In this document: one piece after another, positions 6,028-39,318 of the stretch
Layout: every line of letters begins with the position of its first letter
Position numbering within the stretch: the stretch's first letter is position 1
NCBI GenBank assembly: GCA_021734165.1
Contig: JAIPJL010000001.1
Location: 8,792-72,791 of the forward strand
Direction: 5' to 3'
DNA length: 64,000 nt
Origin: a bacterium
Lineage (GTDB): Bacteria; Electryoneota; AABM5-125-24; Hatepunaeales; Hatepunaeaceae
Notes under the pieces: model-generated
The model's database searches: none
The model's input: only the letters and a program-made list of their open reading frames with translations
What the model was told of the DNA's origin: nothing
Made by a program: the position numbers and the translations under genes

Positions 6028-6059
6028 GGGCTATTCATCACATAATGAATAGCCCTTTT
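6028..6059. terminator. Bidirectional rho-independent terminator between the convergent pyrE-like and TonB-receptor genes
   Basis: An 11 bp perfect stem gggctattcat/atgaatagccc with a 6 nt loop. It is flanked by an A-run upstream and TTTT downstream. Confidence 0.55.
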
Positions 6060-12962: not shown

Positions 12963-14951
<1,989 letters not shown>

Positions 14952-15314
14952 TTATTCAAACCTGATGTCTGCAACAACAGGTTCACCGACGGCATCATTG
15001 AGCTTCCTACGAATAACTTCTTTATCATAACTAAGCTCATTTCGCCAGACAGCATTTTTCACCTTAACTCGAAGAATGCCATTACTAATCGATATCGGTG
15101 ATGTAACTTTAATTATCTCTTTACCAACTACCTGTTCCCAGACAATAATCGCTCTTTGAGACTTAATTATTTTCTGGCAACCAAGTTTGTTCGTGAGATC
15201 ATCTATAGCTAAGCCAAGAGGAATCGAATCTCGCCTATGAGGAAGTTCGCTAACCCATTTCAGATAACCCGTCAGCCTTTTCTGGCTTTGGGGTTTCTTC
15301 TGTTGAAACGACAT
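14952..15314 (-). CDS. DUF721-family protein, the RecF-operon-associated small Zn-ribbon-like protein
   Basis: It is 120 aa and sits in the conserved dnaN-(recF)-DUF721-gyrB position. A typical basic N-terminus is present. Confidence 0.65.
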   Translation of the reverse strand: MSFQQKKPQSQKRLTGYLKWVSELPHRRDSIPLGLAIDDLTNKLGCQKIIKSQRAIIVWEQVVGKEIIKVTSPISISNGILRVKVKNAVWRNELSYDKEVIRRKLNDAVGEPVVADIRFE

Positions 15315-15322
15315 TTATAAAC

Positions 15323-16441
15323 CTACTTGAGCCTGATAGGCATCAGCAGCATTAAATGATCTTCATCTTCCTGTTGACCGGTGGCTGTAACTACGGCAGC
15401 ATCATTAGTTGATTTTAGCGCAAAAACGACTTCTTCTGTATCTATCTGACGCAATACATCAATAAGATAGCTTGAATTGTAGGCAATCTCAAGTGGCTCA
15501 CCACTGTAATCAATTGCGATCTTTTCTTCACCGCGACCACCAAGCTCGGGATCTTCTGTTTCAAGCTTCATATCCATGTCTGAAATAGAAAGCTTAACCT
15601 GATGTGAAATCTGGTTTGCAAAGATCGATACTCTACCAACAGTAGCCATAAACTCATCAGCATTGACTGTCATCTTATACGGATTATCATCAGGAATTAC
15701 ACTTTCATATTTCGGGTAATGACCATCAATAAGCCGTGTGATTAGTCTTTGATGCTCAGTATAGAAATATGCTCTGGTTTCAGCAATTCCGATCTCCGGT
15801 TCGTCAGCATCATCCAGACTGCGTGTTAATAGATTCAGGGCTTTCATAGGTATCACTACATCACGAGCTTCACCTGAAAATTCAATTCCTCGCCTGATGA
15901 TTCGAGATAATCTATGTCCGTCTGTAGCTACGACACGTAGTTCATTTGATCTGATCTGCATTAATATACCGGTAAGTATAGGACGCATATCATCACGTGA
16001 TACTGCAAAAACTGTTTTTGAAATCAACCTTTTTAAGAACTCGCCACTTATCTTGAAGTTAATCTTCGCCTCGACAGAAGGAAGCTCCGGAAAATCCATA
16101 GGATCACCACCTGGAAGAGTATAAACGCCAACACCTTCACAGTTAAGTGTAACCTTTCTGCCTTCATGGACTTCCACCTCAAGAGGTACATCCGGCAGTT
16201 TGCTCACAAGCTCTTGTAGCCTCTTTGCCTGAATTAAAACACTACCATCTCCTTCTGACTCTATAATCTCAACTTTTGAAGTTATAGTAATCTCAAGATC
16301 TGTCGCAGTAATATCAAGACTACCATCTTTCAGTCTGAAGAAAATGTTACCAAGTGAAGGCATAGGCATTCTCACAGGTACTGCGCCCATAACCCGTTGG
16401 AGACTTCTATGTATCGAAGCCTGAGTGAACGTAAATTTCAT
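15323..16441 (-). CDS. dnaN: DNA polymerase III beta sliding clamp
   Basis: N-terminus MKFTFTQASIHRSLQRV, three clamp domains and 372 aa in total. It lies directly downstream of dnaA. Confidence 0.9.
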   Translation of the reverse strand: MKFTFTQASIHRSLQRVMGAVPVRMPMPSLGNIFFRLKDGSLDITATDLEITITSKVEIIESEGDGSVLIQAKRLQELVSKLPDVPLEVEVHEGRKVTLNCEGVGVYTLPGGDPMDFPELPSVEAKINFKISGEFLKRLISKTVFAVSRDDMRPILTGILMQIRSNELRVVATDGHRLSRIIRRGIEFSGEARDVVIPMKALNLLTRSLDDADEPEIGIAETRAYFYTEHQRLITRLIDGHYPKYESVIPDDNPYKMTVNADEFMATVGRVSIFANQISHQVKLSISDMDMKLETEDPELGGRGEEKIAIDYSGEPLEIAYNSSYLIDVLRQIDTEEVVFALKSTNDAAVVTATGQQEDEDHLMLLMPIRLK

Positions 16442-16932
16442 TTATTTTTCCTTTCTTACTGAGTAAATGCTCCTACTAAACGGAACTTACCCGTTCAATA
16501 ATGTATAAATTATCAGGTAAGATAGCAACACCTTTGAGTACCTTTTTACCTTTGTGAAAAATCGTATTTAAATTACTAAAGAATAATATATTATTTTAAA
16601 AATAATAGTGGTAATAATGGTGTTAATTTGTTGATAAAGATGCTGTTTTTGAACTTAATTATTCTATAAGTGTTGAATTATTTTGAACTAAAAGAATAAG
16701 GCGAAAATGTTAATAGTATTGTTAATAAGATTACTTTACGTTAATTAACATTAATAAAAAATAGAAATACTCGGATCCGCTTAGTTTGAAACTTATAGCT
16801 AATATATATTAACATTAGGTTTCAAAATTGGTTAATAAAGAGAGAAAAAAGCGTTAGTTTATGTTTATCCCGGTACGACATATAAACTAACGCAATTTTA
16901 AAACTCTGTTGACTTTTTATCAGCATGTGAGA
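16442..16932. promoter_or_regulatory. Candidate oriC: an AT-rich 491 bp dnaA-dnaN intergenic region
   Basis: Very AT-rich, with long A/T tracts that could act as a DNA-unwinding element. It contains TGTTGATAA (16629-16637), an 8/9 match to the reverse DnaA box TGTGGATAA, and several TTATC(A/C) fragments. Confidence 0.45.
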
Positions 16933-18327
16933 TTAGATTAAAGCAATGTCAATATCCCTTCGGATTTTTGCGATCATTTCTCTAACTTTAACATTATTCT
17001 CGATGAGTTCATTTACTACTTTCACAGCATGAATAACAGTTGCGTGATTTCTCCCGCCAAAATGCAGTCCGATAGTTTTTTGTGTTAGAATTGTGTATTC
17101 AGTAGTCAGATACATAGCGATATGTCTGGCTCTTACGACTTCTTTTTTTCGTGTTTTCGACCGGATTAAATCACTTGGTATATCCATCTCCCTGGCAACC
17201 ATTTCCTGGATTTGATCCACTGATATCGTATAGGATGGCTGGTTATGTTGTTTCTTGATAGCCTCACGAGCAAGATCAAGGGTTATTTCACGTCCCATTA
17301 GGGATGATTGAGCGAGAAGCTGAATTAACGCACTCTGTAAAGAGCGAATGTTAGTCGAGATGTGAACTGAAAGGAAATGGGCAATATCGTCTGAGATGTC
17401 GATGCCATTTTCTTTGGAGAGGTTCTTTAATATTGCCAGTCGTGTTTCATATTCAGGTTTTTGTACTTCTGCGACAAGTCCCCATTGCAACCGACTAACA
17501 AGTCTTTTATCGAAACCGTTAAGTTCATTTGGAGGACGGTCTGAGGAAAAGACCAGTAATTTACCTACCTGGTGAAGTGAGTTAAATGTATGGAAAAACT
17601 CCTCCTGAGTTTTCTCCTTAGTCATAAAGAATTGGACGTCATCAAGCAAAAGTAGATCTACATTTCTATAGTTTTTTATAAAGACGTCTTTTTTTCCATC
17701 CTGAATGCCTTTGATAAAATCAGATGTAAACTGTTCGCTTGTAACATAGAGTACTTTTTTTACCCGACCGAGTTCAACAGCGCGATTACCTATAGCCTGC
17801 ATTAAATGTGTTTTACCTAATCCGGAACCACCATAAATAAGTAGCGGATTGAAGGGATTTTTTCCTGGTGTTTCAGCAAGCGAGAGAGCTGCCGCGCGCG
17901 CAAAGCTATTGCAATCGCCTTCAATGAAATTACTAAACCTATAACGTGGATTTAGATGAGTGTAACTGGCGCTGATGCTTAAAGTTGATGTATAATCAGA
18001 AGTTGGCGCTGATTTTTCTCTGTAGGCAATTCGTTCGCTTATAATTTGAGGTTTGCCTGGATTGATGTCGTACATAACCACAATATTTTCACCGAGCACG
18101 TCTTTAACAGCTTGATGCAGCGGATCATGGTAATGACTCTCAATCCAGTCATGGCAAAATTGACTTGGGATACGGAGTGTTAGTGTCTTTTGGTCATATG
18201 CAAGAGCTTCAATAGGCTTAAACCAGGTGAGGTAGCTCTGTGGAGGAATGATATCTTGCAAGATTGTAGAAATTTTTTGCCAAACCATCTGTGGATGTTC
18301 ACTTGATTGAAAGGCTGGTTGGGTCAT
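16933..18327 (-). CDS. dnaA: Chromosomal replication initiator DnaA
   Basis: AAA+ Walker A is GGSGLGKTHL. The C-terminal DnaA-box binding domain is present (IAMYLTTEYT..IGLHFGGRNHATV). Confidence 0.95.
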   Translation of the reverse strand: MTQPAFQSSEHPQMVWQKISTILQDIIPPQSYLTWFKPIEALAYDQKTLTLRIPSQFCHDWIESHYHDPLHQAVKDVLGENIVVMYDINPGKPQIISERIAYREKSAPTSDYTSTLSISASYTHLNPRYRFSNFIEGDCNSFARAAALSLAETPGKNPFNPLLIYGGSGLGKTHLMQAIGNRAVELGRVKKVLYVTSEQFTSDFIKGIQDGKKDVFIKNYRNVDLLLLDDVQFFMTKEKTQEEFFHTFNSLHQVGKLLVFSSDRPPNELNGFDKRLVSRLQWGLVAEVQKPEYETRLAILKNLSKENGIDISDDIAHFLSVHISTNIRSLQSALIQLLAQSSLMGREITLDLAREAIKKQHNQPSYTISVDQIQEMVAREMDIPSDLIRSKTRKKEVVRARHIAMYLTTEYTILTQKTIGLHFGGRNHATVIHAVKVVNELIENNVKVREMIAKIRRDIDIALI

Positions 18328-18563
18328 ATCTTATGTTCCTATGGGATAAGGACTTATGTTTACTGCTACATGTGATAGAAAATATATACAGGACTTGCAT
18401 TTGAGTCAAGTGTTTAACGCGATTTAATTATTCTTAAACACATTAATACAAATTAAGGGAAATTCCATTTAAACAAGGAATAAGCCATATTAAGATTTTT
18501 AAAAGGTGTCTAAGGCGGTATATAATTCTATGTTGTGCATTAATAGAAGGATGCGTGTATTTA

Positions 18564-20306
18564 TCACTTACCTGTTTTCAACCAGATTGGATTCGAGTAT
18601 GCGAATCGAGTTGAGCCATTATGCAGGCGAGTGTGAATTTCTGCTCTTAGATAAAGCTCGCCTTGAAGCTGAAACTCAATACCCTTGTAATATATTGGTT
18701 CATTATTATTTACATCAAAATTCACTTGGAAGATTGATTTTTCGTCACCGGAATTATAAGTATTAACAATAATTCTTTCTATACAGCCGAATTCTTCTGA
18801 TGATTGACATGTGACTCGTATAAGGGAGTTTGGATCAGATAAGGTCTCGTCTCCGGATAAAAATTTCTTTGATTGATTTAGGACAGTCAATTCGAGGACT
18901 GGTCCGCTACTAATAACAGTCCTTCCAAGTTCTAAAGCTTTTAGAACATTTTGCACAGTGGGAGTTTCGTTGATGTACACATGAGTAGTGGATTTACCAA
19001 AGATAAAGTTATCATGTTCATGCAGTGAAAGCATCGGCATTTTTACCTGCCTGAAACGATTGAAGTTGCCATGTGCATCATTACCGGCGTATATATAACG
19101 TCTTTCACCCTTCAACAGCGCTGTTATCCATTTTTCTAATCCGAGATAAAAATCCTTTTCCGGATTTCCGTTGAGTATCTGCCATCCGCTAAGTCCGGAA
19201 GCGCTCAGATCGCTATCCTGCCAGATACTTCTATTAACCAAATGCTTTTGCAGAAATGGTACAGGGGAAAATGGATGCGCCGCTATAGTAACCGAATTCT
19301 CTGACAGAGCGGCTATGGCATGTCTGACGGTAAATTGGCTTCTCGTCTGAAACCATTCCTGAGCGCTGTCACCTGTGCCCTGTAGGAATCTTTGCTCACC
19401 AAGAACCAGCATGTGGACGTTTTTTCCATTGGATGCTCGACAGGTCAGTTCCTCACCCGGAACGAGTACAACACTACCGGGCATTTTATTGAGACGTTTA
19501 ACATGAGACAGGAATCCGTGCCATTTAAGGAGTTGCGGATCATCGTGAAGATAGTCATCGATCATGTCATCGAGGTTGTATGAGTGGTCGGTAAGGCTTA
19601 CCCAGTCGAGTCCCAGCGCATCCGCTGTTGATTTTATGGCTTCGAGAGGAGCTCCGAACTCAACCTGATCGCAGCCGTATTCAGTGTGGGTATGCAGTTC
19701 TCCGGCATACCAGCCTGGCAGCTTCGGTAGTGGCTCGGCAGCGAGAAAGACCTCAAGCGGAGCTTGTGATAGCCCATGATAGTTATCCTGACTAACATCC
19801 CATGTGCGTTTTTTATCTTGAAGATGAGCGGTTGCTTCGATCTTGACCAAACCAGGTGGAAAATCAGACACATCCACGTCTGAGACGCAGTGCCAGAGGG
19901 ATTTGTTAATCCACAGGTTCAACGGTATGTTGAGCGACTGCGATTTTTCGCCGTTGCTGATCCTGATGTCAATACTCTCGAGCTTAACCGGAAAATGGTG
20001 GGCGTCTTTGATGATCATTGTTATCGGCAGATTGTGATTGGGTTCCAGCCTGAAGGGAGCGTCGAAGATTACTTCCGGCTCACGCCTGAAGTATCTGCTG
20101 AAAGGAAAACCGCGAAAGCGATAGTGAGTCTCAGCGTAGAGCCCGATCAGGGGGATTAGATCGGGGATGTTTATGTTAGTTGGATCAATCAAGGTTTCCG
20201 ATAATAACACAGTAGTGGTGTCAGGTATCCTCGCCCTGCAGCGCTTCCGTTGAATTATCACCCGGAGTAACGAAGCTTGCTTCGTTGTAGAGCAGCGCTC
20301 AGGCAA
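18564..20306 (-). CDS. PHP-domain metal-dependent phosphoesterase with unknown N- and C-terminal regions. The start is uncertain.
   Basis: PHP motifs: GELHTHTEYG (HxH), SLTDHS, VLVPGEELTC, IAAHPFSP and AGNDAHG. The first Met of the ORF may not be the true start. Confidence 0.6.
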   Translation of the reverse strand: MPERCSTTKQASLLRVIIQRKRCRARIPDTTTVLLSETLIDPTNINIPDLIPLIGLYAETHYRFRGFPFSRYFRREPEVIFDAPFRLEPNHNLPITMIIKDAHHFPVKLESIDIRISNGEKSQSLNIPLNLWINKSLWHCVSDVDVSDFPPGLVKIEATAHLQDKKRTWDVSQDNYHGLSQAPLEVFLAAEPLPKLPGWYAGELHTHTEYGCDQVEFGAPLEAIKSTADALGLDWVSLTDHSYNLDDMIDDYLHDDPQLLKWHGFLSHVKRLNKMPGSVVLVPGEELTCRASNGKNVHMLVLGEQRFLQGTGDSAQEWFQTRSQFTVRHAIAALSENSVTIAAHPFSPVPFLQKHLVNRSIWQDSDLSASGLSGWQILNGNPEKDFYLGLEKWITALLKGERRYIYAGNDAHGNFNRFRQVKMPMLSLHEHDNFIFGKSTTHVYINETPTVQNVLKALELGRTVISSGPVLELTVLNQSKKFLSGDETLSDPNSLIRVTCQSSEEFGCIERIIVNTYNSGDEKSIFQVNFDVNNNEPIYYKGIEFQLQGELYLRAEIHTRLHNGSTRFAYSNPIWLKTGK

Positions 20307-20396
20307 GCCTGAACACTCCGGATTTAATTAACCAAAGTTGGATAGTTGATAAGCGACTGTATTTCAGGTTACAAGTAATCAACTGTTAATATATTT

Positions 20397-20957
20397 TCAA
20401 TCTCCGGCTAAAGCGCCTCGAATTCGCTCAAACTCTTTACAAGCTGCAACTAATGAATCAGGTGGAGATTCCAGTTCTTCCCCATTTTTGCAGTTATTTG
20501 CCAGCTTATCGACTAATTGATGTCCTTTCTTGCTTTCGCAAATCGTTCTGTATTCGTTTTTGTATTCTTTTTGTTCGGATTCATCAACATCAACACCATC
20601 CAGATAGGCTGCCCACGTTTCAATAGACCATTTGGGAATGACGTATATAATCTGTTCTTTTTCCGTTCTGGGTGGTTGAAATTTTGAGTCAAGAATCCTG
20701 GTCGCCTCTTTTACAGAATCTTCATCAGCGTCGCGAACTATTAGCAGGATGGTTGAGGCATGTCGTGTCCGGAGCGCTTTCGCTTCCTCACCAATTTTAT
20801 CTTCCACGAATTTTTTACCCGAACCTTTCTCTCGCGGGTAGGGACGGAAACGAAATTTGTAGATAGGAACTTTCCAGCCTGACCTTAAAAAGCGACGAAC
20901 GAAAACCTCATGGCTTTTATCCTCACAAAGGACAATGATCTCCGAGGCTTTACTCAT
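20397..20957 (-). CDS. TOPRIM-like small protein of DUF4276/RloB-like type, partner of the upstream ATPase
   Basis: An N-terminal IIVLCEDKSHE acidic motif followed by LLIVRDADEDS (DxD) fits the TOPRIM Glu...DxD arrangement. The gene overlaps the ATPase stop by 8 nt. Confidence 0.5.
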   Translation of the reverse strand: MSKASEIIVLCEDKSHEVFVRRFLRSGWKVPIYKFRFRPYPREKGSGKKFVEDKIGEEAKALRTRHASTILLIVRDADEDSVKEATRILDSKFQPPRTEKEQIIYVIPKWSIETWAAYLDGVDVDESEQKEYKNEYRTICESKKGHQLVDKLANNCKNGEELESPPDSLVAACKEFERIRGALAGD

Positions 20958-22059
20958 TTTCCCAACCTCGTACCACTATTTCAGCAGGCGTAAGGTCAGC
21001 CACAGGTTTCAGAGGCTTCGTTATCACATGTGAACCCTCTTGACGCGAGAACCATAACTCTTCACCTCTTGCCATTTCATTAATGATCTCAGGGTGATGC
21101 GAGATAATAATGACTTGTCGATCATACTCATCGCAGATATCTTTCAGGTTGTTTATCCAGGGCTGAATTTCCCTTAGTGAAACGAAATTATCCGGCTCAT
21201 CTATTAAAATTTCCGTGTAAATTCCTATCTGAAGCGCTAACATTAGGGTGTAAAGTATAATTAGTTGGCGTTGCCCATCAGATAAGGATAGAAAATCAAA
21301 ATCCCTGTCCTTGCCGTTGATCCTGAAGGTTGCTGTTAAACGACGTGACGAACCAACCTCTTTCAGACGCAAGCTCTCAAAGCCTGGAAGTACGTCTTTC
21401 AAATGCTCTTTAGTCAGGTAACTTATATTTGGGTGTTCCTGAAAGATGTAGCGACACCATTCTGAAAAGTTCTCTGCATGAAAGGATAGCCATCGTGTTT
21501 CGGATTCAGCATCTTGTTTTACAAAATGAGGTATGGGGTTAATAAGCAACCATTTTAAAACAGCTTCACGGAAACGAAGCAGCGGCTCATTGCCTTCGTT
21601 TTCAGCGATAGTAGAAATAACCGAACGACTCCAGTCTGCCCCAAACGAAACTCCCTTCTCGGGTTTACCAGTATCTCTATTGACTCGATATAGGTGTGTG
21701 TTCTTTCCGTCAAACAGGTAGAAAGTGGAATCATTCCACTTCAATTCCTCTCTATCGATCCTGATCTTGTTCTCAGATTTTAACCACTCTATGCTAAGAT
21801 TGTAATCATAACTATCATTGTCTATCAGCATTGAAAAACCAATGGTCTGCGTTGTACGCTTGTCCCATACAGTCAAATCTGAGATGCTAAATATATCCTC
21901 CACATGGTTACCTTTTAAGAGAGACTGAATGTTTCTCAAAGCGGTAAGCACTGTGGATTTGCCGGAACCGTTATCACCAAGCCAGAGCTGAAATTCTCCC
22001 GGTTGGATGCGGAAATTGGTTAAACACTTGAAATTGTCAATGTAAATTTCTTTTATCAT
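20950..22059 (-). CDS. AAA_21/ABC-type ATPase of the OLD/PARIS AriA/RloA-like family
   Basis: Walker A is GDNGSGKST. A LSDGQRQ signature-like motif is present. Walker B is ILIDEPDNFVSL, and IISHH follows. Confidence 0.75.
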   Translation of the reverse strand: MIKEIYIDNFKCLTNFRIQPGEFQLWLGDNGSGKSTVLTALRNIQSLLKGNHVEDIFSISDLTVWDKRTTQTIGFSMLIDNDSYDYNLSIEWLKSENKIRIDREELKWNDSTFYLFDGKNTHLYRVNRDTGKPEKGVSFGADWSRSVISTIAENEGNEPLLRFREAVLKWLLINPIPHFVKQDAESETRWLSFHAENFSEWCRYIFQEHPNISYLTKEHLKDVLPGFESLRLKEVGSSRRLTATFRINGKDRDFDFLSLSDGQRQLIILYTLMLALQIGIYTEILIDEPDNFVSLREIQPWINNLKDICDEYDRQVIIISHHPEIINEMARGEELWFSRQEGSHVITKPLKPVADLTPAEIVVRGWENE

Positions 22060-22236
22060 CGTTGATCCTTTCTTCTGTGCTTGTTGAATATCCCTTTCAG
22101 CAAAATTAACATTATATGTCTCTAAATCAAAACATTATTTAATAAAAGTGGTTCTTCGCTTAATCGTATGGTTAATGAATTTAACACTGCTGTCTAAAAT
22201 AAATTACAAACGTAGCGAGCTTTGTTACTCCGAATA

Positions 22237-22917
22237 TCAAACAGCGCATGTTCCCGTTCCAAGTGCTTTAAAGCTCATCCCTTTATCGAGCAAAGTTCTC
22301 AAGATACCAGGCAGCGCTTCCAACATATTATCGACATAATTTCCTTTGTCATGGAGCAGGACAATATCTCCTGGCTTAACCTTCTTAACGATACGCTCAA
22401 CGAGTAACTTTGGTTGTATCGGTCGATAATCGCCTGCCGATAGCGACCAGAGAACGATTTGCATATTCAAGGATTTTACAACTGAAAGCAGGGGTAATCC
22501 TATGCGTCCGTAAGGTGGACGAAACAACCTTGAATTGCACAATCCGGCGTCGGATATTGCGCCTATGGAGCGGTTGATCTGATCGAGTACGGTTTCTCTT
22601 CCTGCCCAGACAAGCGAGCGATGGTCGTAACTATGACTTGCCACGGTGTGACCTGCTTCGTAAGTCTGTTTGATGATGTCAGGATATTGATCTGCCTGTG
22701 TTCCAATCACAAAAAACGTTGCTTTGCAGTTATACTCGTTGAGGATACTCAGCAGTTTAGTCGTATTAACCGGATCGGGACCGTCATCGAATGTTAAATA
22801 TATCCCATCCGGATCTCCTCGGCTGATTACGTTTGGAAATATAACTGAAGCAGCTTGTGGAAAAATATCTGAAAACATCAGGCTTTCCCCTTGCTCTGAA
22901 ATTGCTGCCCTTTCCAT
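22237..22917 (-). CDS. Polysaccharide deacetylase (NodB homology domain, CE4)
   Basis: FDDGPDP...ATFFVIG...HTVASHSYDH motifs. Confidence 0.85.
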   Translation of the reverse strand: MERAAISEQGESLMFSDIFPQAASVIFPNVISRGDPDGIYLTFDDGPDPVNTTKLLSILNEYNCKATFFVIGTQADQYPDIIKQTYEAGHTVASHSYDHRSLVWAGRETVLDQINRSIGAISDAGLCNSRLFRPPYGRIGLPLLSVVKSLNMQIVLWSLSAGDYRPIQPKLLVERIVKKVKPGDIVLLHDKGNYVDNMLEALPGILRTLLDKGMSFKALGTGTCAV

Positions 22918-24029
22918 TCGAAGCTGCTGAAATGTCCTCCAATTACAAACATTACCGTAACTAAGGGATAGATAAACTCGAGAATGAAAAACTCTGAAAG
23001 ACTATATTTTTCACAGAATAAACTGCTGCCGAGACTGAGCGCCTGCCAGTCAACCAGTAGCCTCATGGCTACCCAGATGAGAAAATACCGCCAATCAGAC
23101 GCAAGATAAGCAATGATTGGGCTGATGACCAGCAATAGTAAAAACAAAAACACACCGGCAAGGATAACCTTGCGTGAAGTTCGGTAGTAAAGTCCTTTAG
23201 AACCCCAGCGGATGCGCTGATGCCAAAGTTCTTTCAGTGTTGTTACAGGTTTGGTTTCAACGATTGCTTCCGGTAAGGCAGCGACAGCGATCTTCCAGTC
23301 GGTATTGGCGGCTTTAGCGAGTAATAGTTCATCATCACCGGAGATTATTTTTTCATAACCATCCCAGCCGTTTATTTCATCGAAGAGCTGTTTACGATAA
23401 GCAAGGCTTGCGCCTGTGCAGTGAAAGGGCATTCCGGCGGCGACAAGTCCTGCAGATGCATATCCTAAGGATTGGAAATCGAGAAATTGCAGCTTTTGCC
23501 AAAATGGAATTCGATTTTTGTTATTAGCGACAAACCGCGCTTGCCCAACTACCATTCCAACTTCAGGCGTCATTGTCGTGACAAGTGCGCGTATCCAGCC
23601 GGGATCATGTTTACAGTCAGCGTCAGTAGTTAATATTATCTCGCCTGTGGATGCTGCAATGCCTTTCTCTAATGCCTGCTTTTTAGGACTGATCCCTTGT
23701 GTTATTTCGCTTTGTTTGATAAGCTTGATTCTTTTATCTTGCTCGGAGAATTTCCTGACAATCTCAGAAGTATCATCTTCAGAACGATCATCTACAATGG
23801 TGATCTCCATCAAATCATGCGGATAGTTCTGCTTGAGAAGACTATTAAGCGTATCCGAAATGTTTTCCGCTTCATTGCGAGCTGCTATAATGATGCTAAC
23901 GCGGGGAGTTGCTTCCGATTCTTGCTGCGGCGTCATTTTCAGGCGCATCAGCCCGATGACAATACGGTTAAGTAACAGTAAATAAAAAAAGCCGCCGATG
24001 GACAGTATTATTTTCCAGACAAGTAGCAA
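22878..24029 (-). CDS. Family 2 glycosyltransferase, membrane-embedded and processive-type
   Basis: VSIIIAARNE...IVDDRSEDDT (DxD), TDADC and QRIRWG (QxxRW) motifs, with N- and C-terminal TM segments. Confidence 0.85.
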   Translation of the reverse strand: MLLVWKIILSIGGFFYLLLLNRIVIGLMRLKMTPQQESEATPRVSIIIAARNEAENISDTLNSLLKQNYPHDLMEITIVDDRSEDDTSEIVRKFSEQDKRIKLIKQSEITQGISPKKQALEKGIAASTGEIILTTDADCKHDPGWIRALVTTMTPEVGMVVGQARFVANNKNRIPFWQKLQFLDFQSLGYASAGLVAAGMPFHCTGASLAYRKQLFDEINGWDGYEKIISGDDELLLAKAANTDWKIAVAALPEAIVETKPVTTLKELWHQRIRWGSKGLYYRTSRKVILAGVFLFLLLLVISPIIAYLASDWRYFLIWVAMRLLVDWQALSLGSSLFCEKYSLSEFFILEFIYPLVTVMFVIGGHFSSFEWKGQQFQSKGKA

Positions 24030-24031
24030 TT

Positions 24032-25012
24032 CTAAACTTCCTTTTTACGTTTATCGATCTGAAGACGACTGATAAACAGAACGCCAATTAAAGCAGGTAT
24101 CAGTACGTTCATGGCGAACATGAGGATGGAGGCGTTGAAAGCAGCTTCAGGAGAAGCGCCGAACTGACCGAAAAATTGTACGGATACAAGCTGATCTACT
24201 CCGAGGTCGGCAATAGCAATAGGTAAAGCTGTTTTCGCAAAGAGAATAGCTGCTGCGCCGCGTATGCTGGTGAATATGTCTAACTGAGCAAAACTGCTGA
24301 TTAGCAGGTAGTACTGGACAAGGAATACAATGTAATGCGCAAGAGTCAACAGCAGCGTAAACCGCGCTTGCGGGGCGTTGAAATAATCCAAGCCATGCGC
24401 CAGTTGAGCGATTCTGTTTCGTCGCGGAAAGGTAATTTGAAGTGAATAGATAAGGCTTCTAATGGGTCGAGGATCAAGCGCCAAATAAAGCAGCAGCAAT
24501 CCAAGTATTAATACGAGGATAATAATCGAGATAAATAGGTGTGTTTTGGATATAAAGACATCCATCTCGATAATATCGAAAGTTCCGAGCTTAAATATCC
24601 AGGGTAATGTTATCAGGGCAGGAAGTCCGAATGCTACAGTACAGCCGATGTTGTAAAATTTATCAATTATCGTTAAACCGACGAGGTTCAGCGTATTGTG
24701 TTTGATAAAGAAACCGCGTCCGTATTCACCGATACGTCCCGGAGTCACAATACCGAGTGCATAACCGCCAAGTAATGAACCGAGTGACTCATTGAAGGTG
24801 ATGCCGGGATAAATAAGCCTGACGAGATAGCGCCATTTATACTCGGTCAGCCAGATATTCAAGGGCATGAGCAGAAATGCGGCAATTACAAGGCTATATT
24901 CCGCGGAGCGGAAAGCAGAAATGATAGCTTCCATGCGGATGGTGCGATACATTAAGCCAAGCAGAACAACAGCAACGGCGACTTTAATCCAGAATAGCGT
25001 TCGTTTCTTCAT
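24032..25012 (-). CDS. UPF0104 / lysylphosphatidylglycerol-synthase-TM-like (flippase-like) integral membrane protein
   Basis: Eight or more TM segments and the typical ...GGYALGIVTPGRIGEYGRGFF segment. Confidence 0.65.
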   Translation of the reverse strand: MKKRTLFWIKVAVAVVLLGLMYRTIRMEAIISAFRSAEYSLVIAAFLLMPLNIWLTEYKWRYLVRLIYPGITFNESLGSLLGGYALGIVTPGRIGEYGRGFFIKHNTLNLVGLTIIDKFYNIGCTVAFGLPALITLPWIFKLGTFDIIEMDVFISKTHLFISIIILVLILGLLLLYLALDPRPIRSLIYSLQITFPRRNRIAQLAHGLDYFNAPQARFTLLLTLAHYIVFLVQYYLLISSFAQLDIFTSIRGAAAILFAKTALPIAIADLGVDQLVSVQFFGQFGASPEAAFNASILMFAMNVLIPALIGVLFISRLQIDKRKKEV

Positions 25013-25938
25013 TAATAGACTGATTTACGAGGCAGATACAAATTTCTCAAGCCCTCTGTGCAGTTACGACACATCGGTATTTTATCCCTGCCTCCGTGAT
25101 TGACGACGTGTTGGAATTCTCTGATCGTTTTTCCTTTCCAGATTTCGCGCCAGGGCTGTTTGAAAGCATTGCCCATTGAGTGAAAGTCGTTGGTACTAAA
25201 ACAGCAGGGCAGTACATCCCCGTTCCATGCAACTACGGCGGAGTGAGCAAGTCTGCGGCAATTGGAGCGTGTTCTGTTCATCTCAAGATGATCGTTAACA
25301 AGTTTATACCGCCATAGCCTTGGGTCATCCGGCAAATGAGTCAAAGATTCTTCCAAATTTTCCGGATGCGAAACCCTGTAGGTCTTAAATTTAACCTCGT
25401 CAACTCCCAATGACAAGGTTAAATCATAAATAGCTTTGAATTGTGATTTTGATTGGCGTGAAATTAAACACTCGACGATGACCTTTGGTTTTCGGCTGCC
25501 GAGGCTCTTGCGAGCTTCAACGAGCGCGCGAACGCCTTTCTCAACGTCCGTCAGTGAACCACCTTTTCTGATGCGAGAATATGTTTCTTCATCAGCTCCG
25601 TCTATACCGATGCTAATTCTATTCAATCCGGATTTTACAATATTTTCAGCTAATCCACTTTTAGACAGCAGGATGCCGTTGGTATGAGTCTGAGTCCAGA
25701 TTTTACGCCGTGTCGCTTCAGCAACCATTGCAGTAAAATCGGGAGCAACGAGGGGATCGCCTCGGTGCCAGAGATTGAGGAATCTCAGCCAGGGTAATTG
25801 TTTGATGACATGGACGAAATACGCGATGCGCATCACGCCTCCGCCTCTACCGGAGGCGGTCGGGCAGTCAGGACAGTCAAGATTGCAGGCTGCGGATGGC
25901 TCCATCCAGAGCATTATGGGAGTCGGAAAACGAAACAC
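25012..25938 (-). CDS. Radical SAM enzyme with a C-terminal SPASM/twitch auxiliary Fe-S domain
   Basis: CNLDCPDC, which is the Cx3Cx2C radical-SAM cluster. Additional C-terminal Cys clusters are CRRLAHSAVVAWNGDVLPCC and CRNCTEG. Confidence 0.8.
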   Translation of the reverse strand: MFRFPTPIMLWMEPSAACNLDCPDCPTASGRGGGVMRIAYFVHVIKQLPWLRFLNLWHRGDPLVAPDFTAMVAEATRRKIWTQTHTNGILLSKSGLAENIVKSGLNRISIGIDGADEETYSRIRKGGSLTDVEKGVRALVEARKSLGSRKPKVIVECLISRQSKSQFKAIYDLTLSLGVDEVKFKTYRVSHPENLEESLTHLPDDPRLWRYKLVNDHLEMNRTRSNCRRLAHSAVVAWNGDVLPCCFSTNDFHSMGNAFKQPWREIWKGKTIREFQHVVNHGGRDKIPMCRNCTEGLRNLYLPRKSVY

Positions 25939-25940
25939 GC

Positions 25941-27002
25941 TTATTCTGTTTTTCCGCTTAATTTATCCTTTGCCAGCTTTCCAAGCTCCTGTAAATGCTT
26001 TATGTCGTTTTTCTTTCTATCAGCCACACTTTTAGAGAATTTCAGTTTCGATGCAGTCTCCTCTGTTTTTACAACTTCTTCCCATTTCCCTAACTCAAAA
26101 TAAGCAACGCCTAACTTGTGCAGACAATCAATTTCGTTATAATAATTGTTGCGTTCATCATTAGCAACTAATAGATACATCGGTTCCAGCAAAGTTATCG
26201 CCTCTTCCCATCTCTCGGATTTAATCAATGCTCTTATCAGCAGCCAGTTAAACGCTCTGACATTATTGTATTCTTTTAACAGATCTTGCTCAATACGGAT
26301 TGCCTCTTCGTAATTACCCTTCTCATAGGCGATCCAGGCAAGGCTGTTGCGAGCGGATATTCTGGTCAGGCTGCCATACTCTGCGGCTATCTCTAAATAT
26401 CTGAGACCTTCATCACGTTGATCAGGAATAATGCCGATGCTTCTAAGTATCCCTGCATATTTGCTGCGATAATACTTATACATGCCCAAGCCGTAATACA
26501 CATCCCAGTTTGTCGAATCAAGTTCAATAGCTTTTTCGAGATAATTACCACCGTTAATTACATGTTTTATTGACTTGAATAATCTACCCTGACGCTGGTA
26601 TATAACCGAACGGTACAGCTCTGTCATACCGCGATAAAACCAGAGTTCCGACGTTTGATCGGCGTCCTTGAGCTTAGCTTCAACTAACTGATCCGTTCTA
26701 TCGCAGGCATTCAGAATATCAGGGAAATCAATTTCGTCTTCATAGTCCATAGCACGGGCGGACAGAATGGTCGCTTTAAGCAGAGGAATATATGGATTAT
26801 CCGGTTGAACAGACCGAATACTGTCGATCAGCGTTAAAGCTTGGTCGTATTGTTCGCGTGTACCAAGATCGATGATGGTTTCGCTTAGTTTACTGGTTCT
26901 GTTAATATCTTTGGTTTCAGAGCAGGTTGCTTTGTTGCCAAATCCAAAGTGCAGAACGAATAGGATTAATAATATGTTTTTTATGTTGTTACTTTTTACC
27001 AA
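25941..27002 (-). CDS. Secreted TPR-repeat protein
   Basis: Signal peptide plus multiple 34-residue TPR-like repeats (W-LG-Y...A-..). Confidence 0.6.
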   Translation of the reverse strand: MVKSNNIKNILLILFVLHFGFGNKATCSETKDINRTSKLSETIIDLGTREQYDQALTLIDSIRSVQPDNPYIPLLKATILSARAMDYEDEIDFPDILNACDRTDQLVEAKLKDADQTSELWFYRGMTELYRSVIYQRQGRLFKSIKHVINGGNYLEKAIELDSTNWDVYYGLGMYKYYRSKYAGILRSIGIIPDQRDEGLRYLEIAAEYGSLTRISARNSLAWIAYEKGNYEEAIRIEQDLLKEYNNVRAFNWLLIRALIKSERWEEAITLLEPMYLLVANDERNNYYNEIDCLHKLGVAYFELGKWEEVVKTEETASKLKFSKSVADRKKNDIKHLQELGKLAKDKLSGKTE

Positions 27003-27136
27003 TTATCAGGTCTTTTCTTCATCGATGAGTATAAATCTTTGTTGCATTTGAGTTGCATATGAATTGCGTTTGTGTTGCGTTTGTGTCATGTATGAACATC
27101 TTGTATATTAAGCACATAAGGAATAACTTTGCGTTT

Positions 27137-27403
27137 TTATGGTTTATTTTTGTGTAAACTTTCTATAAACCAGAGTGAATCTCTTCTATTTCCTGTTTTA
27201 TATATTTTCCGCTCATTTCTGAGTATTTTAAGCAGCCGATAAATTTGATCTTTTGTTAAATCAGGTAATACATGCAATAAATCCCTCATACGACTTCCTT
27301 TTTCATTAAATGTGGTGATGTGCTGTATTAACAATGCTTTATTAGTTTCTTCATTTAATCCTTTCCTTCGAGTATAAGTTCCTTTGTCGTCAAATAAAGT
27401 CAC
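27137..27403 (-). pseudogene. Orphan 3' gene fragment encoding only a C-terminal wHTH module, paralogous to the C-terminus of the 543 aa protein at 27808-29439
   Basis: About 50% identity to ...GEKGTYTRKKGLDKETNKALLLEHIKTYNKEGSTMSEFMQVLPDL... of the neighbouring gene. A GTG start sits inside an 18 bp inverted repeat, and there is no upstream remainder of the gene. Confidence 0.5.
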
Positions 27404-27694
27404 TACTGTCCCGTTAAAAGTTAAATAACAAAAATTGTTTATGATTTGTAAGGTTAAAGTAACATTATAATAATCTGTAACTACTTGAGAAAACTAAACT
27501 TTCTTAAATAGTGAAATGCTTAAAATTTGTGATATTTCATTAAGACTACGTTAATCAATTTCAAATCGAAAACAGTTTTTGAGAGACATTTATCTTGTAA
27601 TATTCGTTAGTTATACGTTTTTTCTAAATCCTTAACGGGACAGTAGTGATACTTTTATTGTACTTTTATTGTACTTTTATTGTACTTTTATTGT
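27400..27694. repeat. An 18 bp perfect inverted repeat pair, tcactactgtcccgttaa at 27400-27417 and its reverse complement at 27633-27650, flanks 215 bp of AT-rich DNA. A 4x 11 bp tandem repeat (acttttattgt) at 27651-27694 follows immediately.
   Basis: Read directly from the sequence. Confidence 0.7.
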
Positions 27695-27807
27695 GTAAAG
27701 TATAGGTCGTATATATATTAAATACAAGTACTTAAAAATTTCTTATGTGTGAATATTGTATTTTTGGTGTAAAAAATTTACATTGTTAATAGATTTATGT
27801 AACAATT

Positions 27808-29439
27808 CTACATAGTGAACCAATGGGCGGCTTTTGTAGCACCAACTATTTTGATTTTACCCTCATTTTTTAAGTTGTTTAACAAACTACTTATTTGTCT
27901 TCTTGACAAATCTGGAAGTACTTGCATGAATTCGCTCATTGTGCTTCCCTCCTTATTGTATGTTTTTATATGTTCCAATAAAAGTGCTTTGTTCGTTTCT
28001 TTGTCCAATCCCTTCTTACGTGTATAAGTCCCTTTTTCTCCCAAGTGCGAATAGTACTTTCTGGATAGTATCAGATGATGTTTGCCTTTTTCGGGTCGCT
28101 CAACTACGTTATGCTTTAGTAGATGCTGGATTCTTTTATTAACAATATCTCGCTCAAGGGTTTTTGGGTATCGACCTTTCTTTCGGATGGAATCAAGGAT
28201 AAGATAATCTTCTGAAGAAAAATTAGTCTGAGTTTCTTTGCCGATCTTTTCAAGGAAACTTATAAAACCAGGATCTTCGATTTTACCCGATAAATCTACC
28301 ACAACCTCAGTTCTATCTGATTGTGAGTAATCCGGCAGAGCTTTACTCTCCATAATACACTGTCGGAACATCAATCTTGTCCCTTGATTTGATCTCTCAA
28401 CTAAACCGCACTTTGCGAGGACGTCAGCTATTCGACGGTTGCGTGGAACTTGTTTGGTGAGGATGTTTTCAGGATTGACGCCTTCCGGGAAACCGCCTGG
28501 ACTGCTAACTGAAATTTTCTCCGGGTACTGCCTGATGAAAACTGAACCGGGATGACGATAATCACGATGACTGATAGCATTAAGTATGGCTTCTCTGACA
28601 ACTTCTTCATTCAGACTCTTGATATCCCATTTGAAGAAGCCATCCTGAATATATTGTCTTGTGTTTCGGTTATCTATAATTTTCCATAAATCGTCAAAGT
28701 ACTTAAAGAAACCAACATTAAATTCTTCTCTTGCGTCATATTCAATCTTTGCTTCATTTGCTCGATATTCAAAGACAAGTTCAGAGCGGGGAATATAATC
28801 TCTTATAGCTTTCCTTTTCCCGAGCAGAATCAATGCTGCATAGGTTACTCTATTGTTAACGATGAGTTCAATGTCATTTAGCAATTGTGAATCGGTACTA
28901 TTTCGAATGTCTTTATTTCCTGATTTGATACTCCATATATTCCTCAGTTGATGAATAGCCTCATCATCAAGATCGGTTAGTGATGCCCCTTTACAGATTT
29001 CAGAAGAAAAATCCTGATGCTCCTCGTCAAGGATTTCTTTGAGTGTGTTTGGCGGCATATCGCTAATACTATCGCCAATCCTCATCAAATATCTGCCTTT
29101 GTAACGTATTGGTTGACCGATTGTTCTTGACGGTATATCAAAGATTAAAACGCGCACATCAGGATGCTGAACTTCCCGAATATTAACACGAATGTTTAGT
29201 TCATCAAAGACTTTCTTTTTTATCTTATCAAGATTTTGGAATGCACTCGTTCCGACAACCAATCTTGGTAATTTGTCAGTGACGCCAAGTACCAACTTGC
29301 CGCCTCTTTCGTTTGCGATAGCCGCACAGTACATTACTGTTTTCTCGATATTAAAGCTAGATTTTGCTTCTTTGAACTCGAGGTGTTCTGTTTCTTTCAA
29401 GGTTAGCAGAGATTCTAATTCTGCTATCAAATTATGCAT
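27808..29439 (-). CDS. AlbA_2 (Schlafen-like) + HATPase_c_4 'divergent AAA'-type putative transcriptional regulator/ATP-binding protein with a C-terminal wHTH
   Basis: N-terminal AlbA_2 segment (EHLEFKEAKSSF...AAIANERGGKLVLGV). The central region is typical of the RecG-C-terminal-like HATPase_c_4 family. A wHTH lies at the C-terminus. Confidence 0.65.
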   Translation of the reverse strand: MHNLIAELESLLTLKETEHLEFKEAKSSFNIEKTVMYCAAIANERGGKLVLGVTDKLPRLVVGTSAFQNLDKIKKKVFDELNIRVNIREVQHPDVRVLIFDIPSRTIGQPIRYKGRYLMRIGDSISDMPPNTLKEILDEEHQDFSSEICKGASLTDLDDEAIHQLRNIWSIKSGNKDIRNSTDSQLLNDIELIVNNRVTYAALILLGKRKAIRDYIPRSELVFEYRANEAKIEYDAREEFNVGFFKYFDDLWKIIDNRNTRQYIQDGFFKWDIKSLNEEVVREAILNAISHRDYRHPGSVFIRQYPEKISVSSPGGFPEGVNPENILTKQVPRNRRIADVLAKCGLVERSNQGTRLMFRQCIMESKALPDYSQSDRTEVVVDLSGKIEDPGFISFLEKIGKETQTNFSSEDYLILDSIRKKGRYPKTLERDIVNKRIQHLLKHNVVERPEKGKHHLILSRKYYSHLGEKGTYTRKKGLDKETNKALLLEHIKTYNKEGSTMSEFMQVLPDLSRRQISSLLNNLKNEGKIKIVGATKAAHWFTM

Positions 29440-31682: not shown

Positions 31683-31883
31683 CTATTCCATGTACTATGG
31701 TTAATCTAAACCTGAAAATCAGCTTTAGCAAGACACTTATTCAATAAATAATTACTATGTAGTACTAATCTGCTTCATCTGTTGTATCTGATTAGAAAAA
31801 ATCTTTCTAATTTATAACTATAATACAAAATCCATAGTTATAAATAATTAAATCCTGATAATCCTGTCTATCCTTGTTAAGCA

Positions 31884-31975
31884 TTCCGTCACGTTCCGTC
31901 ACATTTCCGTCACACCATCTAACCCATACCCAGTATGTCTTTCCGGCGATTCTGTGACGATGTGACGATAATTTT
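31884..31975 (+). repeat. Copy B of the GTCAC/GTGAC intergenic repeat family
   Basis: ttccgtcacgttccgtcacatttccgtcacaccatctaaccc - 28 bp - gtgacgatgtgacgataatttt. Confidence 0.55.
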
Positions 31976-32012
31976 GCCTACCCGGAATCTTTGTCGAAAA
32001 TTGCGTCGAGAT

Positions 32013-32041
32013 TTGACTTTTATAGAAAAATGTTGTATATT
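32013..32041 (+). promoter_or_regulatory. Near-consensus sigma70-like promoter (TTGACT-N17-TATATT), orphan on the + strand, followed by a possible short transcript ending at the hairpin at 32114-32133
   Basis: TTGACT at 32013-32018 and TATATT at 32036-32041 with a 17 nt spacer. No + strand ORF of 60 aa or more lies downstream. The stem-loop gacaagca-ttct-tgcttgtc lies about 75 nt further on. Confidence 0.35.
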
Positions 32042-32181
32042 GTCACTATGTCACATGACGAACTTTGCTCTTTAAATCACAGGCAGAGACGCCTACGCTA
32101 CGTTTATGGTTTTGACAAGCATTCTTGCTTGTCCTACTGTTAACAAACCCTTCTTTCTAACTTTCTTACTTGTTTCCTTTC

Positions 32182-34461: not shown

Positions 34462-34741
34462 CTTAAACCTCCGTATGTATTTTTAAATACTAAAGAACTT
34501 CAAAATCTAAAATAAAAGCGTGGCACAGTCAGCACTGTTAATCTGAGCAAAGCGAAGAAGCTCCTTCATTATCCCGCCCCCCCTACTACTCAGTTTGTGC
34601 GGGAATATGTAAAATCGCCAGAACTGTCATTCCTGCGCAGGCAGGAATCTAAAAGGGTTATGTACTTAATAATTAAGCAGATATGGATTCCGGCTTTCGT
34701 CGGAACGACACACTATCGCAATATTTCAAAGAACTCATTAT

Positions 34742-37912: not shown

Positions 37913-39031
37913 CTATAACGTTCTATCTTTCCATTTCACTTTCCCAACCATTGACAAAGGCAATAAAATAGTAAAAATCAACGGGGATACAATTTCCGCT
38001 AAAAACCAGGATAATAACCAATCATGTTCACGTAATAACCTGGCGCCGCGTGATAATGCCAGCCCGTCGATGCATGCTTTCGCTCCCCAGACCGCTGCAA
38101 TGGTACCCGGATCATAACTGCCGTACGCTGCCATTATTGCCGTAATTATCAGCAGAGGATTGAAAGCGTATAGAAAAATCCCGATAGCAATAAGAGCGGG
38201 ATTGTATCGTTTGCCTGCCGAATAATGACGGCGTTTCATTTGCCACCAGCCCCTCAGCGTCTGTTGTCCCAGGGCAGGCACGAACGATCGCGGATCGATG
38301 TTGAATACAGCATTGCCGCCGTTTTTCACGATGCGCTGTAATAACAAGTCATCATCTCCTGAAGCAGTTGTTAATCCTGACCCAAATCCTCCGACTTTGT
38401 TAAAAGCAGTCCTAAGATAAGCGAAATTACGCCCGACAGAACTGCTGGCTTTCCCAAGTCCGAGAGTGCCGGCGGAGATTACAGCGTTTATAAAACCGTC
38501 GAAATGAACCAGAGAGCTGATTAATCCAATCTCATGGAGTGGTGAATGACCAACCACAGCATCTGTGTCCGGCTTAAAACATCCTGTCATACTCCTCAGC
38601 CATCCATGAGGAGGCTGGCAGTCGGCGTCGGTGGTCAGGATTATATCTCCGGTCGAAGCATTAATTCCCGTAAGAAGTGTATGTTTTTTTGGTGCAACTC
38701 CCGCTGGTGCCGGCTCAGCCTGTAATAATCTGAATCCGGGCGTTGTATTAATAAACTCTTCAATGATTTCGGCAGTGCGGTCAGTTGAATTATCATTAAT
38801 GATTATATATTCTCGCAGATCGGAGGGGTAATTCTGCTCAGACAGCGCTTTAAGGCATTTCAGAATGTTTTGTTCTTCATTACGTGCAGCCACAAGTACG
38901 CTTACACTCGGCAGAGAGGCGCTCGATACACGTCGTAACCTGCCGAGTCCAATTGCCAGAAGAAACACAGCAACAACCCAGACAGATCCGCAGAATAGAA
39001 GCAGATAGAAGGTGATTGTGGTTAGCGTCAA
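37913..39031 (-). CDS. Family 2 glycosyltransferase, a paralogue of the one at 22878-24029
   Basis: VSVLVAARNEEQNI...IINDNSTDRT, TDADC and a QxxRW-like motif. The TM topology is the same as in the paralogue. Confidence 0.8.
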   Translation of the reverse strand: MTLTTITFYLLLFCGSVWVVAVFLLAIGLGRLRRVSSASLPSVSVLVAARNEEQNILKCLKALSEQNYPSDLREYIIINDNSTDRTAEIIEEFINTTPGFRLLQAEPAPAGVAPKKHTLLTGINASTGDIILTTDADCQPPHGWLRSMTGCFKPDTDAVVGHSPLHEIGLISSLVHFDGFINAVISAGTLGLGKASSSVGRNFAYLRTAFNKVGGFGSGLTTASGDDDLLLQRIVKNGGNAVFNIDPRSFVPALGQQTLRGWWQMKRRHYSAGKRYNPALIAIGIFLYAFNPLLIITAIMAAYGSYDPGTIAAVWGAKACIDGLALSRGARLLREHDWLLSWFLAEIVSPLIFTILLPLSMVGKVKWKDRTL

Positions 39032-39318
39032 AGTAAATGTAGTTTCTATGTCATTGAGTAAACAAACGTTATAATTTCAATATATAACAACATTAACGTA
39101 TTAGCAACATTACTGTTCAGATGGTTAAATAATTATAGGGAGAAAACAAAAGAAAAATTAACTAATCATGTTCATAATTGCTTTTATCAGAATGCTATTC
39201 ACAAGCCGTTTGGTTGCATTCTATACCCATCCTTGTTATATTTGTAACAAGGGATTTTGTCTTTAGAATCTCTATTATCCATAAGTAATAACAGCTAAAT
39301 AGGAAACACGCTTTAGTA

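Follow-up and report, generated by a model that had tools for sequence, protein, structure and literature searches.

What do a radical SAM enzyme, a flippase-like membrane protein, a glycosyltransferase and a de-N-acetylase produce together when their genes are packed end to end? The question is raised by four minus-strand genes at positions 22237 to 25938 of a 64,000-nucleotide stretch of bacterial DNA (contig JAIPJL010000001.1 of assembly GCA_021734165.1), which as a whole is called the window here. The answer given about an even chance is that a Calditrichota-like bacterium of the Fibrobacteres–Chlorobi–Bacteroidetes (FCB) group makes an amino-sugar membrane lipid by a synthase–deacetylase–flippase pathway. 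Family assignments, intact motifs, coupling of the genes as in an operon and their modular inheritance across lineages carry the proposal, together with the cytoplasmic location predicted for the three soluble enzymes. The steps of the pathway were deduced from the genes.

The membrane-embedded family 2 glycosyltransferase (GT2) would, at the cytoplasmic face, link an N-acetyl-hexosamine to a membrane lipid through the lipid's hydroxyl; the donor is probably UDP-GlcNAc, and the candidate acceptors are diacylglycerol or a glycolipid, phosphatidylglycerol, or a terpenoid alcohol. A paralogous enzyme encoded elsewhere in the window (GT2b) may add a further sugar. A cytoplasmic carbohydrate esterase of family 4 (CE4) would take off the N-acetyl group and expose a cationic amine, and a PHP-type metallohydrolase, inherited always with the CE4 enzyme, would strip a second blocking group, for example a phosphate or an ester, from the same intermediate. 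The radical SAM enzyme would serve as an optional tailoring enzyme that abstracts hydrogen from the (amino)sugar ring, turning a secondary alcohol into a ketone as BtrN does or rearranging the ring. The UPF0104 protein would carry the finished lipid to the outer leaflet.

Gene content, coupling and inheritance of the cluster

All four open reading frames were found on the minus strand where a sequence-only reading of this DNA had placed them. The radical SAM gene (25012..25938) encodes a radical SAM core followed by a C-terminal Twitch-type, that is cut-down SPASM, domain (Pfam Radical_SAM 5e-14, SPASM 2e-15), and its true start is most probably the ATG at 25914, giving a protein of ~300 aa (MLWMEPS...) as in the homologues. 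The second gene (24032..25012) encodes a UPF0104/LPG_synthase_TM flippase-like polytopic membrane protein of 326 aa with about 7-8 hydrophobic segments by hydropathy. It matched PF03706 (1.5e-25) at residues 8-310, so that the lysyl-phosphatidylglycerol-synthase-like transmembrane (TM) domain read earlier was confirmed over the full length. The third gene (22878..24029) encodes the membrane-embedded, GT21-like GT2 of 383 aa, which matched GT2 Pfam families including Glyco_transf_21 (4e-14), and the fourth (22237..22917) the CE4 de-N-acetylase of NodB fold (Polysacc_deac_1, PF01522, 2.4e-35). The probable true start of the CE4 gene is the ATG at 22878, which yields 213 aa, a length matching the homologues. 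A motif check found the catalytic motifs intact in the radical SAM enzyme, the GT2 and the CE4 enzyme; none of the four proteins reached an NCBIfam equivalog cut-off.

The stop codon of the radical SAM gene and the start codon of the flippase-like gene overlap as TAATG, a gap of 2 nt follows between the flippase-like gene and the GT2 gene, and the GT2 stop and CE4 start overlap as TGATG, provided that the CE4 gene begins at ATG 22878. The overlaps at these junctions indicate translational coupling, and the four genes are tightly coupled, in accordance with the earlier claim that they are contiguous, co-oriented and overlapping. When 18000-27900 was scanned for sigma-70 promoters and terminators, the counts were close to the shuffled expectation and no intergenic terminator was found, which is uninformative on the operon limits; FCB promoters differ in any case. 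Scans of the window for tRNAs and Rfam families gave no hits.

Hydropathy analysis gave no hydrophobic segments in the radical SAM, CE4 and PHP proteins, and their chemistry is therefore predicted on the cytoplasmic face, before flipping. The CE4 enzyme, which carries the motifs TFDDG, HSYDH, RPPY and LLH, had neither a signal peptide nor a TM segment by the same analysis and is predicted to be cytoplasmic.

The extent of four genes at 22237-25938 assumed by the sequence-only reading was too narrow and missed the PHP gene, an insertion and the modular inheritance described below. The PHP-type metallohydrolase of the CehA/McbA family (18564..20192, minus strand, 542 aa) is the fifth conserved gene according to its NF038032 match and synteny; by comparison of the loci it belongs to the cluster, which therefore runs past 22237. 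Its longest open reading frame reaches 20306, and the NCBI entry P0201, "CehA/McbA family metallohydrolase", has 542 aa. It scored 94.5 bits against the NF038032 domain cut-off of 80, and the Pfam PHP match was marginal. The residues H167, H169, H203, E247/E248, H260, H306, D372 and H374 were invariant in 49 sequences and supply the metal-binding His/Asp/Glu set of PHP/CehA-McbA metallohydrolases. The predicted layout consists of an N-terminal helix, a beta-sandwich, the PHP barrel (H167xH169 ... D372xH374) and a C-terminal beta-sandwich, and the AlphaFold2 model has a mean confidence (pLDDT) of 90.9. Searches of PDB sequences with the UPF0104 and PHP proteins, as single sequences and as profiles, were essentially empty.

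In the window, two minus-strand genes stand between the CE4 and PHP genes. One encodes an AAA_21 ATPase of 369 aa (20950..22059), assigned by Pfam and matching the PADLOC candidate-defence models HEC-01A, PDC-M25A and mad3 at about 1e-22; the other, overlapping it, encodes a 186-aa partner without family match (20397..20957). Both are missing between CE4 and PHP in lineages L001, L002, L081, L083, L090, L092 and L109, and the PHP homologues of the relatives (515-550 aa) lie directly 3' of the CE4 gene with an overlap or a gap of 10-17 nt. Judged by these comparisons, the ATPase and its partner are a defence-like insertion that splits the cluster and lies outside the pathway.

Synteny was compared over about 12 lineages. 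The order radical SAM–flippase-like–GT2–CE4–PHP–dnaA was found in six other lineages (L001, L002, L081/82, L083/84, L090) with radical SAM identities of 52-71%, an arrangement that goes far beyond what chance would give. In every locus examined the flippase-like gene adjoined the GT2 gene. The CE4 and PHP genes were both present in the window, L001, L002, L081, L083, L090, L092, L109 and L110, and both absent from L085 and L108. The radical SAM gene was present in seven lineages. The co-occurrence of the four genes first read in the window thus held in six lineages, and it failed for the radical SAM gene, the least constant member, which four lineages lack or have deleted and which in Bacteroidota occurs by itself. 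The idea that the PHP gene is a mere passenger linked to dnaA was rejected, because the Ignavibacteriales group it with GT2, CE4 and flippase genes elsewhere than dnaA, in the order GT2–flippase–GT2–CE4–GT2–PHP–M50. These clusters hold three GT2s, two of them extra, in an unrelated genomic context. A metagenome scan gave nothing beyond short contigs for the close clade.

Further genes accompany the cluster in some relatives. A class I methyltransferase gene lies beside the radical SAM and/or flippase gene in L083 (9051-9863), L087 (2312-3133) and L092 (5057-5929) and is not in the window. Its best NCBIfam match is daptide amine N-methyltransferase (5.6e-34, below cut-off); the enzyme may N-methylate the exposed amine, and its occurrence would fit a free amine in the product. 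A secreted protein of 473-481 aa without Pfam match, having a signal-peptide-like N-terminus and a DNDGIPD motif, is encoded upstream of the cluster in L083 (6408-7853) and L092 (3625-5046) and is absent from the window.

GT2b (37913..39031, minus strand, 372 aa) is by Pfam a GT21-like paralogue with 32% identity to the cluster GT2. In the window it is parted from the cluster by three genes for cargo of the type IX secretion system (T9SS), a Schlafen-like gene and a tetratricopeptide repeat (TPR) gene. In L001 an orthologue (55%) is found 1.6 kb upstream of the radical SAM gene, and in L089 another (43%) lies near it. Because of the position in L001, GT2b may be a displaced member of the cluster and the second glycosyltransferase of the pathway.

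Nature of the product and comparison with known systems

The DxD and QxxRW motifs read earlier in the polytopic GT2 were recovered as DAD 136-138 (23624..23616) and QRIRW 271-275 (23219..23205), together with DDRSED 80-85, SPKK and GDDE 231-234. The AlphaFold2 model (pLDDT 95) shows four TM helices, one at the N-terminal end and three at the C-terminal end. PF13506 scored 52.9 bits against a gathering score of 21.7, and among PDB sequences the GT2 profile aligned at 7-334 to residues 17-337 of ceramide glucosyltransferase (2.3e-17). The only other near end-to-end match was BcsA (profile 21-322, 1e-12), and the ArnC and GtrB structures aligned only at 37-177. The enzyme therefore has the features of GT21-like lipid glycosyltransferases, namely PF13506, the D1/D2/D3 and (Q/R)xxRW motifs and a full-length alignment. 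Its sub-threshold NCBIfam matches included PgaC, HpnB, CruG and HpnI, of which the last three are lipid or terpenoid glycosyltransferases.

Two characterised systems were set beside the cluster by their published descriptions. In C. difficile, hexSDF encodes a glycosyltransferase, a polysaccharide deacetylase and an MprF-like flippase that make aminohexosyl-hexosyl-diradylglycerol, as proved by lipidomics (PMC10128005). It shares with the present cluster the placing of an N-acetyl-hexosamine on a membrane lipid, a CE4-type deacetylase (HexD) and an MprF/UPF0104-like flippase (HexF) in one operon; it differs in that HexS is annotated as being of the MGDG-synthase type and not GT2/GT21, radical SAM and PHP genes are absent, regulation is by a two-component system and the host is a Firmicute (PMC10128005). 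In P. aeruginosa, gpgSDF encodes a GT4 enzyme, a COG3233 deacetylase and a UPF0104 flippase, and its product, glucosaminyl-phosphatidylglycerol, likewise proved by lipidomics, lowers the negative charge of the membrane (PMC12713373). The synthase, the cytoplasmic deacetylase and the predicted COG0392/UPF0104 flippase GpgF have counterparts here, whereas GpgS is a soluble GT4 (cd03814), GpgD belongs to COG3233 and not to CE4, and radical SAM and PHP genes are absent (PMC12713373). The window carries the flippase in the operon and the adjacent de-N-acetylase of these systems; no homologue of HexS (MGDG-synthase) or GpgS (GT4) was found, the GT2 matching only GT2-type Pfam families. By analogy, the synthase–deacetylase–flippase logic matches that of hexSDF and gpgSDF, with non-homologous synthases.

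The hopanoid genes hpnI/J/K/L offer a further parallel: their GT2 places GlcNAc on a lipid alcohol, their radical SAM enzyme contracts the ring of the glucosamine head group, and a deacetylase and a UPF0104 protein complete the set. None of them is orthologous to the genes of the cluster. HpnI scored 70.1 bits against a cut-off of 310, HpnL (TIGR03476) gave no match to the UPF0104 protein at E<=0.01, and HpnJ was not among the best 25 of the 39 NCBIfam matches of the radical SAM enzyme, which were led by other families. HpnK is of the YdjC type and not CE4, and HpnJ is not known to belong to the Twitch enzymes. The window showed no hopanoid genes. The locus was tested for membership in the poly-N-acetylglucosamine (PNAG), Nod factor, hopanoid and Arn/Lgm systems and was assigned to none of them. 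Literature searches on the exact gene combination and on amino-glycolipids of Calditrichota or Ignavibacteria turned up nothing specific.

Two other products have to be weighed against an amino-sugar membrane lipid. It is rather improbable that a processive GT2 makes a chain resembling PNAG, a chitin oligomer or a Nod factor, with partial de-N-acetylation by the CE4 enzyme and export aided by the UPF0104 protein. PNAG (PgaABCD/IcaADBC) and NodABC do share with the cluster a membrane GT2 with QxxRW and a CE4 enzyme acting on GlcNAc units; QRIRW and GDDE are also found in processive GT2s, the top NCBIfam match of the GT2 was PgaC (4e-32), the CE4 enzyme matched NodB (3e-36), and the best Foldseek TM-scores were to hyaluronan synthase and BcsA. 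NodC/NodB is a generally known precedent for a 4-TM GT2 with a cytoplasmic CE4 enzyme. The scores are, however, far under the cut-offs (PgaC TIGR03937 111.6 bits vs 422.3, NodC 55.8 vs 550, NodB 124.7 vs 240), and genes for PgaA, PgaD/IcaD, NodA or an exporter were found in none of the about 12 loci, and those for PgaA and PgaD/IcaD not in the window either, the constant partner being a lipid-flippase-type protein instead. The CE4 enzyme is predicted to be cytoplasmic and lacks a signal peptide, unlike the extracytoplasmic PgaB and IcaB. The best end-to-end match of the GT2 is the non-processive ceramide glucosyltransferase, which leaves processivity unsupported, and the 2-3 paralogous GT2s per related cluster favour single sugar additions over a polymerase. 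The processive GT2 assumed in the sequence-only reading was consequently given up, and among the products it had offered a glycolipid is the best supported, not a PNAG-like polymer; its broader view of a membrane glycoconjugate cluster, with GT2, UPF0104 and CE4 working on a de-N-acetylated sugar, is supported.

The other product would arise by a route like those of Arn, Lgm or Gtr, in which the GT2 loads N-acetyl-hexosamine onto polyprenyl phosphate, the CE4 enzyme de-acetylates it, the UPF0104 protein flips it and a transferase in the periplasm, whose gene lies outside the locus, passes the sugar to lipid A, a glycan or a protein. ArnC/ArnD/ArnEF and LgmA/LgmC are generally known to combine a GT2, a CE4-type hydrolase and a flippase in this manner, archaeal AglD-type proteins by their family naming join a GT2 to a UPF0104-like domain, and lipopolysaccharide core enzymes (GT9) are encoded nearby in the window. 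Such a route is nevertheless held to be unlikely: the GT2 is not of the ArnC, GtrB or dolichyl-phosphate-mannose synthase type (ArnC PRK10714, 29.1 bits vs 529), proteins of that type match only the N-terminal half of its catalytic domain, and a GT-C gene like arnT or lgmB was in none of the loci examined.

Several points weigh against the proposed amino-sugar membrane lipid pathway. The product, the acceptor lipid and the donor sugar were inferred, and the NCBIfam equivalog matches are far below their cut-offs. In Foldseek the closest structures to the GT2 model are processive synthases (Chlorella virus hyaluronan synthase TMq 0.70, BcsA 0.66), in a library possibly without ceramide glucosyltransferase structures, and this proximity leaves room for an oligosaccharide product. 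The PHP model has no informative structural neighbour and the role given to this enzyme is a guess. Every full-cluster locus adjoins dnaA, so that the synteny may partly be inherited and not selected. The radical SAM gene is not obligatory, as L092, L108, L109 and L110 have the cluster without it; L085 has the gene at a locus without CE4 and PHP, and the enzyme therefore cannot strictly need a de-acetylated amine. Its relatives at 45-48% identity are unlinked to such a cluster, and a large Bacteroidota branch (~36%) stands alone.

Amino-sugar lipids alter the surface charge of membranes and influence resistance to cationic antimicrobials, and their genetics was resolved only in 2023-2025, in two pathogens. 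An amino-sugar lipid pathway at this locus would show the same logic to be widespread in environmental FCB phyla (Calditrichota, Ignavibacteriales, KSB1, Marinimicrobia-like); new here would be its construction from unrelated enzymes, a GT21-like GT2 and a CE4 enzyme. Two uncharacterised catalysts would gain a substrate context: the Twitch radical SAM family, whose members number in the thousands, and the 540-aa PHP family with >1000. New head groups would also bear on the intact polar lipids used as biomarkers in sediments.

Role of the radical SAM enzyme

The sequence-only reading had given this enzyme a SPASM domain, usual in enzymes that act on peptides, and regarded it as an odd member of the cluster. 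The CxxxCxxC motif is C18-x3-C22-x2-C25 (CNLDCPDC, 25887..25864). In the family alignment the only conserved cysteines of the C-terminal domain are C227, C245(C246), C290 and C293; these four auxiliary-cluster cysteines are encoded within 25260..25060, and the chain ends 15 residues past C293. The seven-cysteine SPASM signature with two auxiliary clusters was not found in this alignment, so the domain is of the four-cysteine Twitch type. With four cysteines instead of seven and a Twitch-type domain, a SPASM peptide maturase was rejected; no precursor-peptide gene was noted.

The family profile matched PDB sequences of BtrN (7e-27), BlsE (8e-15), GDGT-MAS (1.5e-12) and anSME (2e-10). The closest solved relatives are thus BtrN and then the sugar decarboxylase BlsE, which replaces the peptide-type view. 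Against 4M7T (BtrN) the profile scored 97.8 bits, the core at 8-112 and the Twitch domain at 221-295 being aligned, and all four cysteines fell in the columns of the BtrN auxiliary-cluster cysteines. BtrN, which carries a single auxiliary cluster of the Cys4 kind, oxidises 2-deoxy-scyllo-inosamine (PMC10337720). BtrN (PDB 4M7T/4M7S) and the present enzyme have in common a CxxxCxxC core with a Twitch domain and the four cysteines that in BtrN bind the single auxiliary [4Fe-4S] cluster, and the BtrN substrate is an amino-polyol ring similar to glucosamine. As the nearest solved relative acts on an aminocyclitol, an amino-sugar head group would be a natural substrate. BtrN differs in belonging to a soluble aminoglycoside antibiotic pathway, in its length of about 250 aa and in its low identity, whereas the present gene is operon-linked to membrane proteins. 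By analogy with BtrN, the enzyme may dehydrogenate a secondary alcohol or rearrange the sugar ring.

That a lipid-linked (amino)hexose head group is the substrate, which the enzyme converts to a keto-amino sugar or, by the ring contraction proposed for HpnJ and calditol synthase (Cds), into an ether-linked aminocyclitol is put forward tentatively, as a doubtful extension of the amino-sugar lipid pathway. Cds, also a radical SAM enzyme, remodels a hexose head group that is attached to a lipid, and a phosphatase is likewise suspected in its pathway; it is archaeal, acts on a tetraether lipid and is likened here by function. If the extension were true, anaerobic Calditrichota-like bacteria would make an undescribed class of amino-cyclitol or keto-amino glycolipids, radical SAM tailoring of head groups would have a third, independently evolved system, and the PHP protein would be a new enzyme processing lipid intermediates.

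The enzyme could also stand outside the pathway, as an FCB housekeeping enzyme whose gene precedes the flippase and GT2 genes in one clade only because the gene order of the dnaA region was inherited, a possibility given a minor share of the probability. With 5601 representative clusters at E<=1e-30 the family is very large; its bulk lies in Bacteroidota, and its members are mostly about 337 aa long with an N-terminal hydrophobic helix. None of the 78 more distant loci, mostly from Bacteroidota, has any conserved neighbour or, within 10 kb, a gene for a GT2, a flippase or a CE4 enzyme, and the unlinked relatives at 45-48% identity and the four lineages that keep the cluster without a radical SAM gene point the same way. 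Against this, homologues of 53% to 71% identity retain the stop/start overlap of 1-4 nt with the flippase gene, and the closest solved relative acts on an amino-cyclitol. Relics of the gene were also found immediately upstream of the flippase-like gene in two lineages lacking it. In L109 (5824-5910) the relic 'LIKLPNPIMLWVAQSAACNLDYNCCKTVA' has 15/29 residues identical to the N-terminus of the window enzyme (E 1e-7) with the CxxxCxxC motif broken, and in L108 (~6007-6039) a short C-terminal relic reads 'NCTKGLRQMYI'. Relics at the operon position show that the gene was ancestral in the clade and later lost by deletion, and repeated deletion is how an optional tailoring enzyme would behave.

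The association with glycosyltransferases is argued to be functional from two further cases. In L093 (5168-12685) the order is PHP (278 aa)–flippase-like–GT2–CE4–HpnI-like GT2–Twitch radical SAM–DUF1207–M50 protease, where the PHP protein is RNase RNM / pAp-phosphatase-like and the radical SAM enzyme is of a different, BlsE/PTO1314-like Twitch type. This looks like a separate recruitment of a sugar-type radical SAM enzyme to an analogous cluster. The family moreover holds one natural GT2–radical SAM fusion (P0442, 632 aa), whose GT2 part is TuaG/WcaA-like.

Surroundings of the cluster

A gene for a TPR-repeat protein (25941..27002, minus strand, Pfam TPR) abuts the radical SAM gene and is probably co-transcribed with it here. 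It was rejected as a member of the cluster, a homologue being found in no related locus. A 543-aa Schlafen/AlbA_2 protein with HATPase_c_4 follows (27808-29439, minus strand), with weak PADLOC matches to pAgo-associated proteins, and homologues of it lie directly upstream of the radical SAM gene in the short metagenome contigs L095 and L097, so that it counts as a conserved neighbour. Between the cluster and GT2b, at 29817-37825 on the minus strand, lie the genes for three large proteins that carry a C-terminal sorting domain of the T9SS, one of them also with FG-GAP/ASPIC; in L089 an FG-GAP T9SS protein lies between GT2b and the radical SAM gene.

The dnaA–dnaN–gyrB genes lie at 18327..12963, and a second AAA_15/AAA_21 ATPase of 350 aa (11893-12945, minus strand) is encoded between gyrB and a MazG-family gene. 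A search for DnaA boxes gave no enrichment and no cluster. The cumulative GC skew has its minimum at ~38000-39300, and gene orientation changes from minus to plus between GT2b (39031) and gyrA (39319); the replication origin may lie near 39.2 kb rather than beside dnaA.

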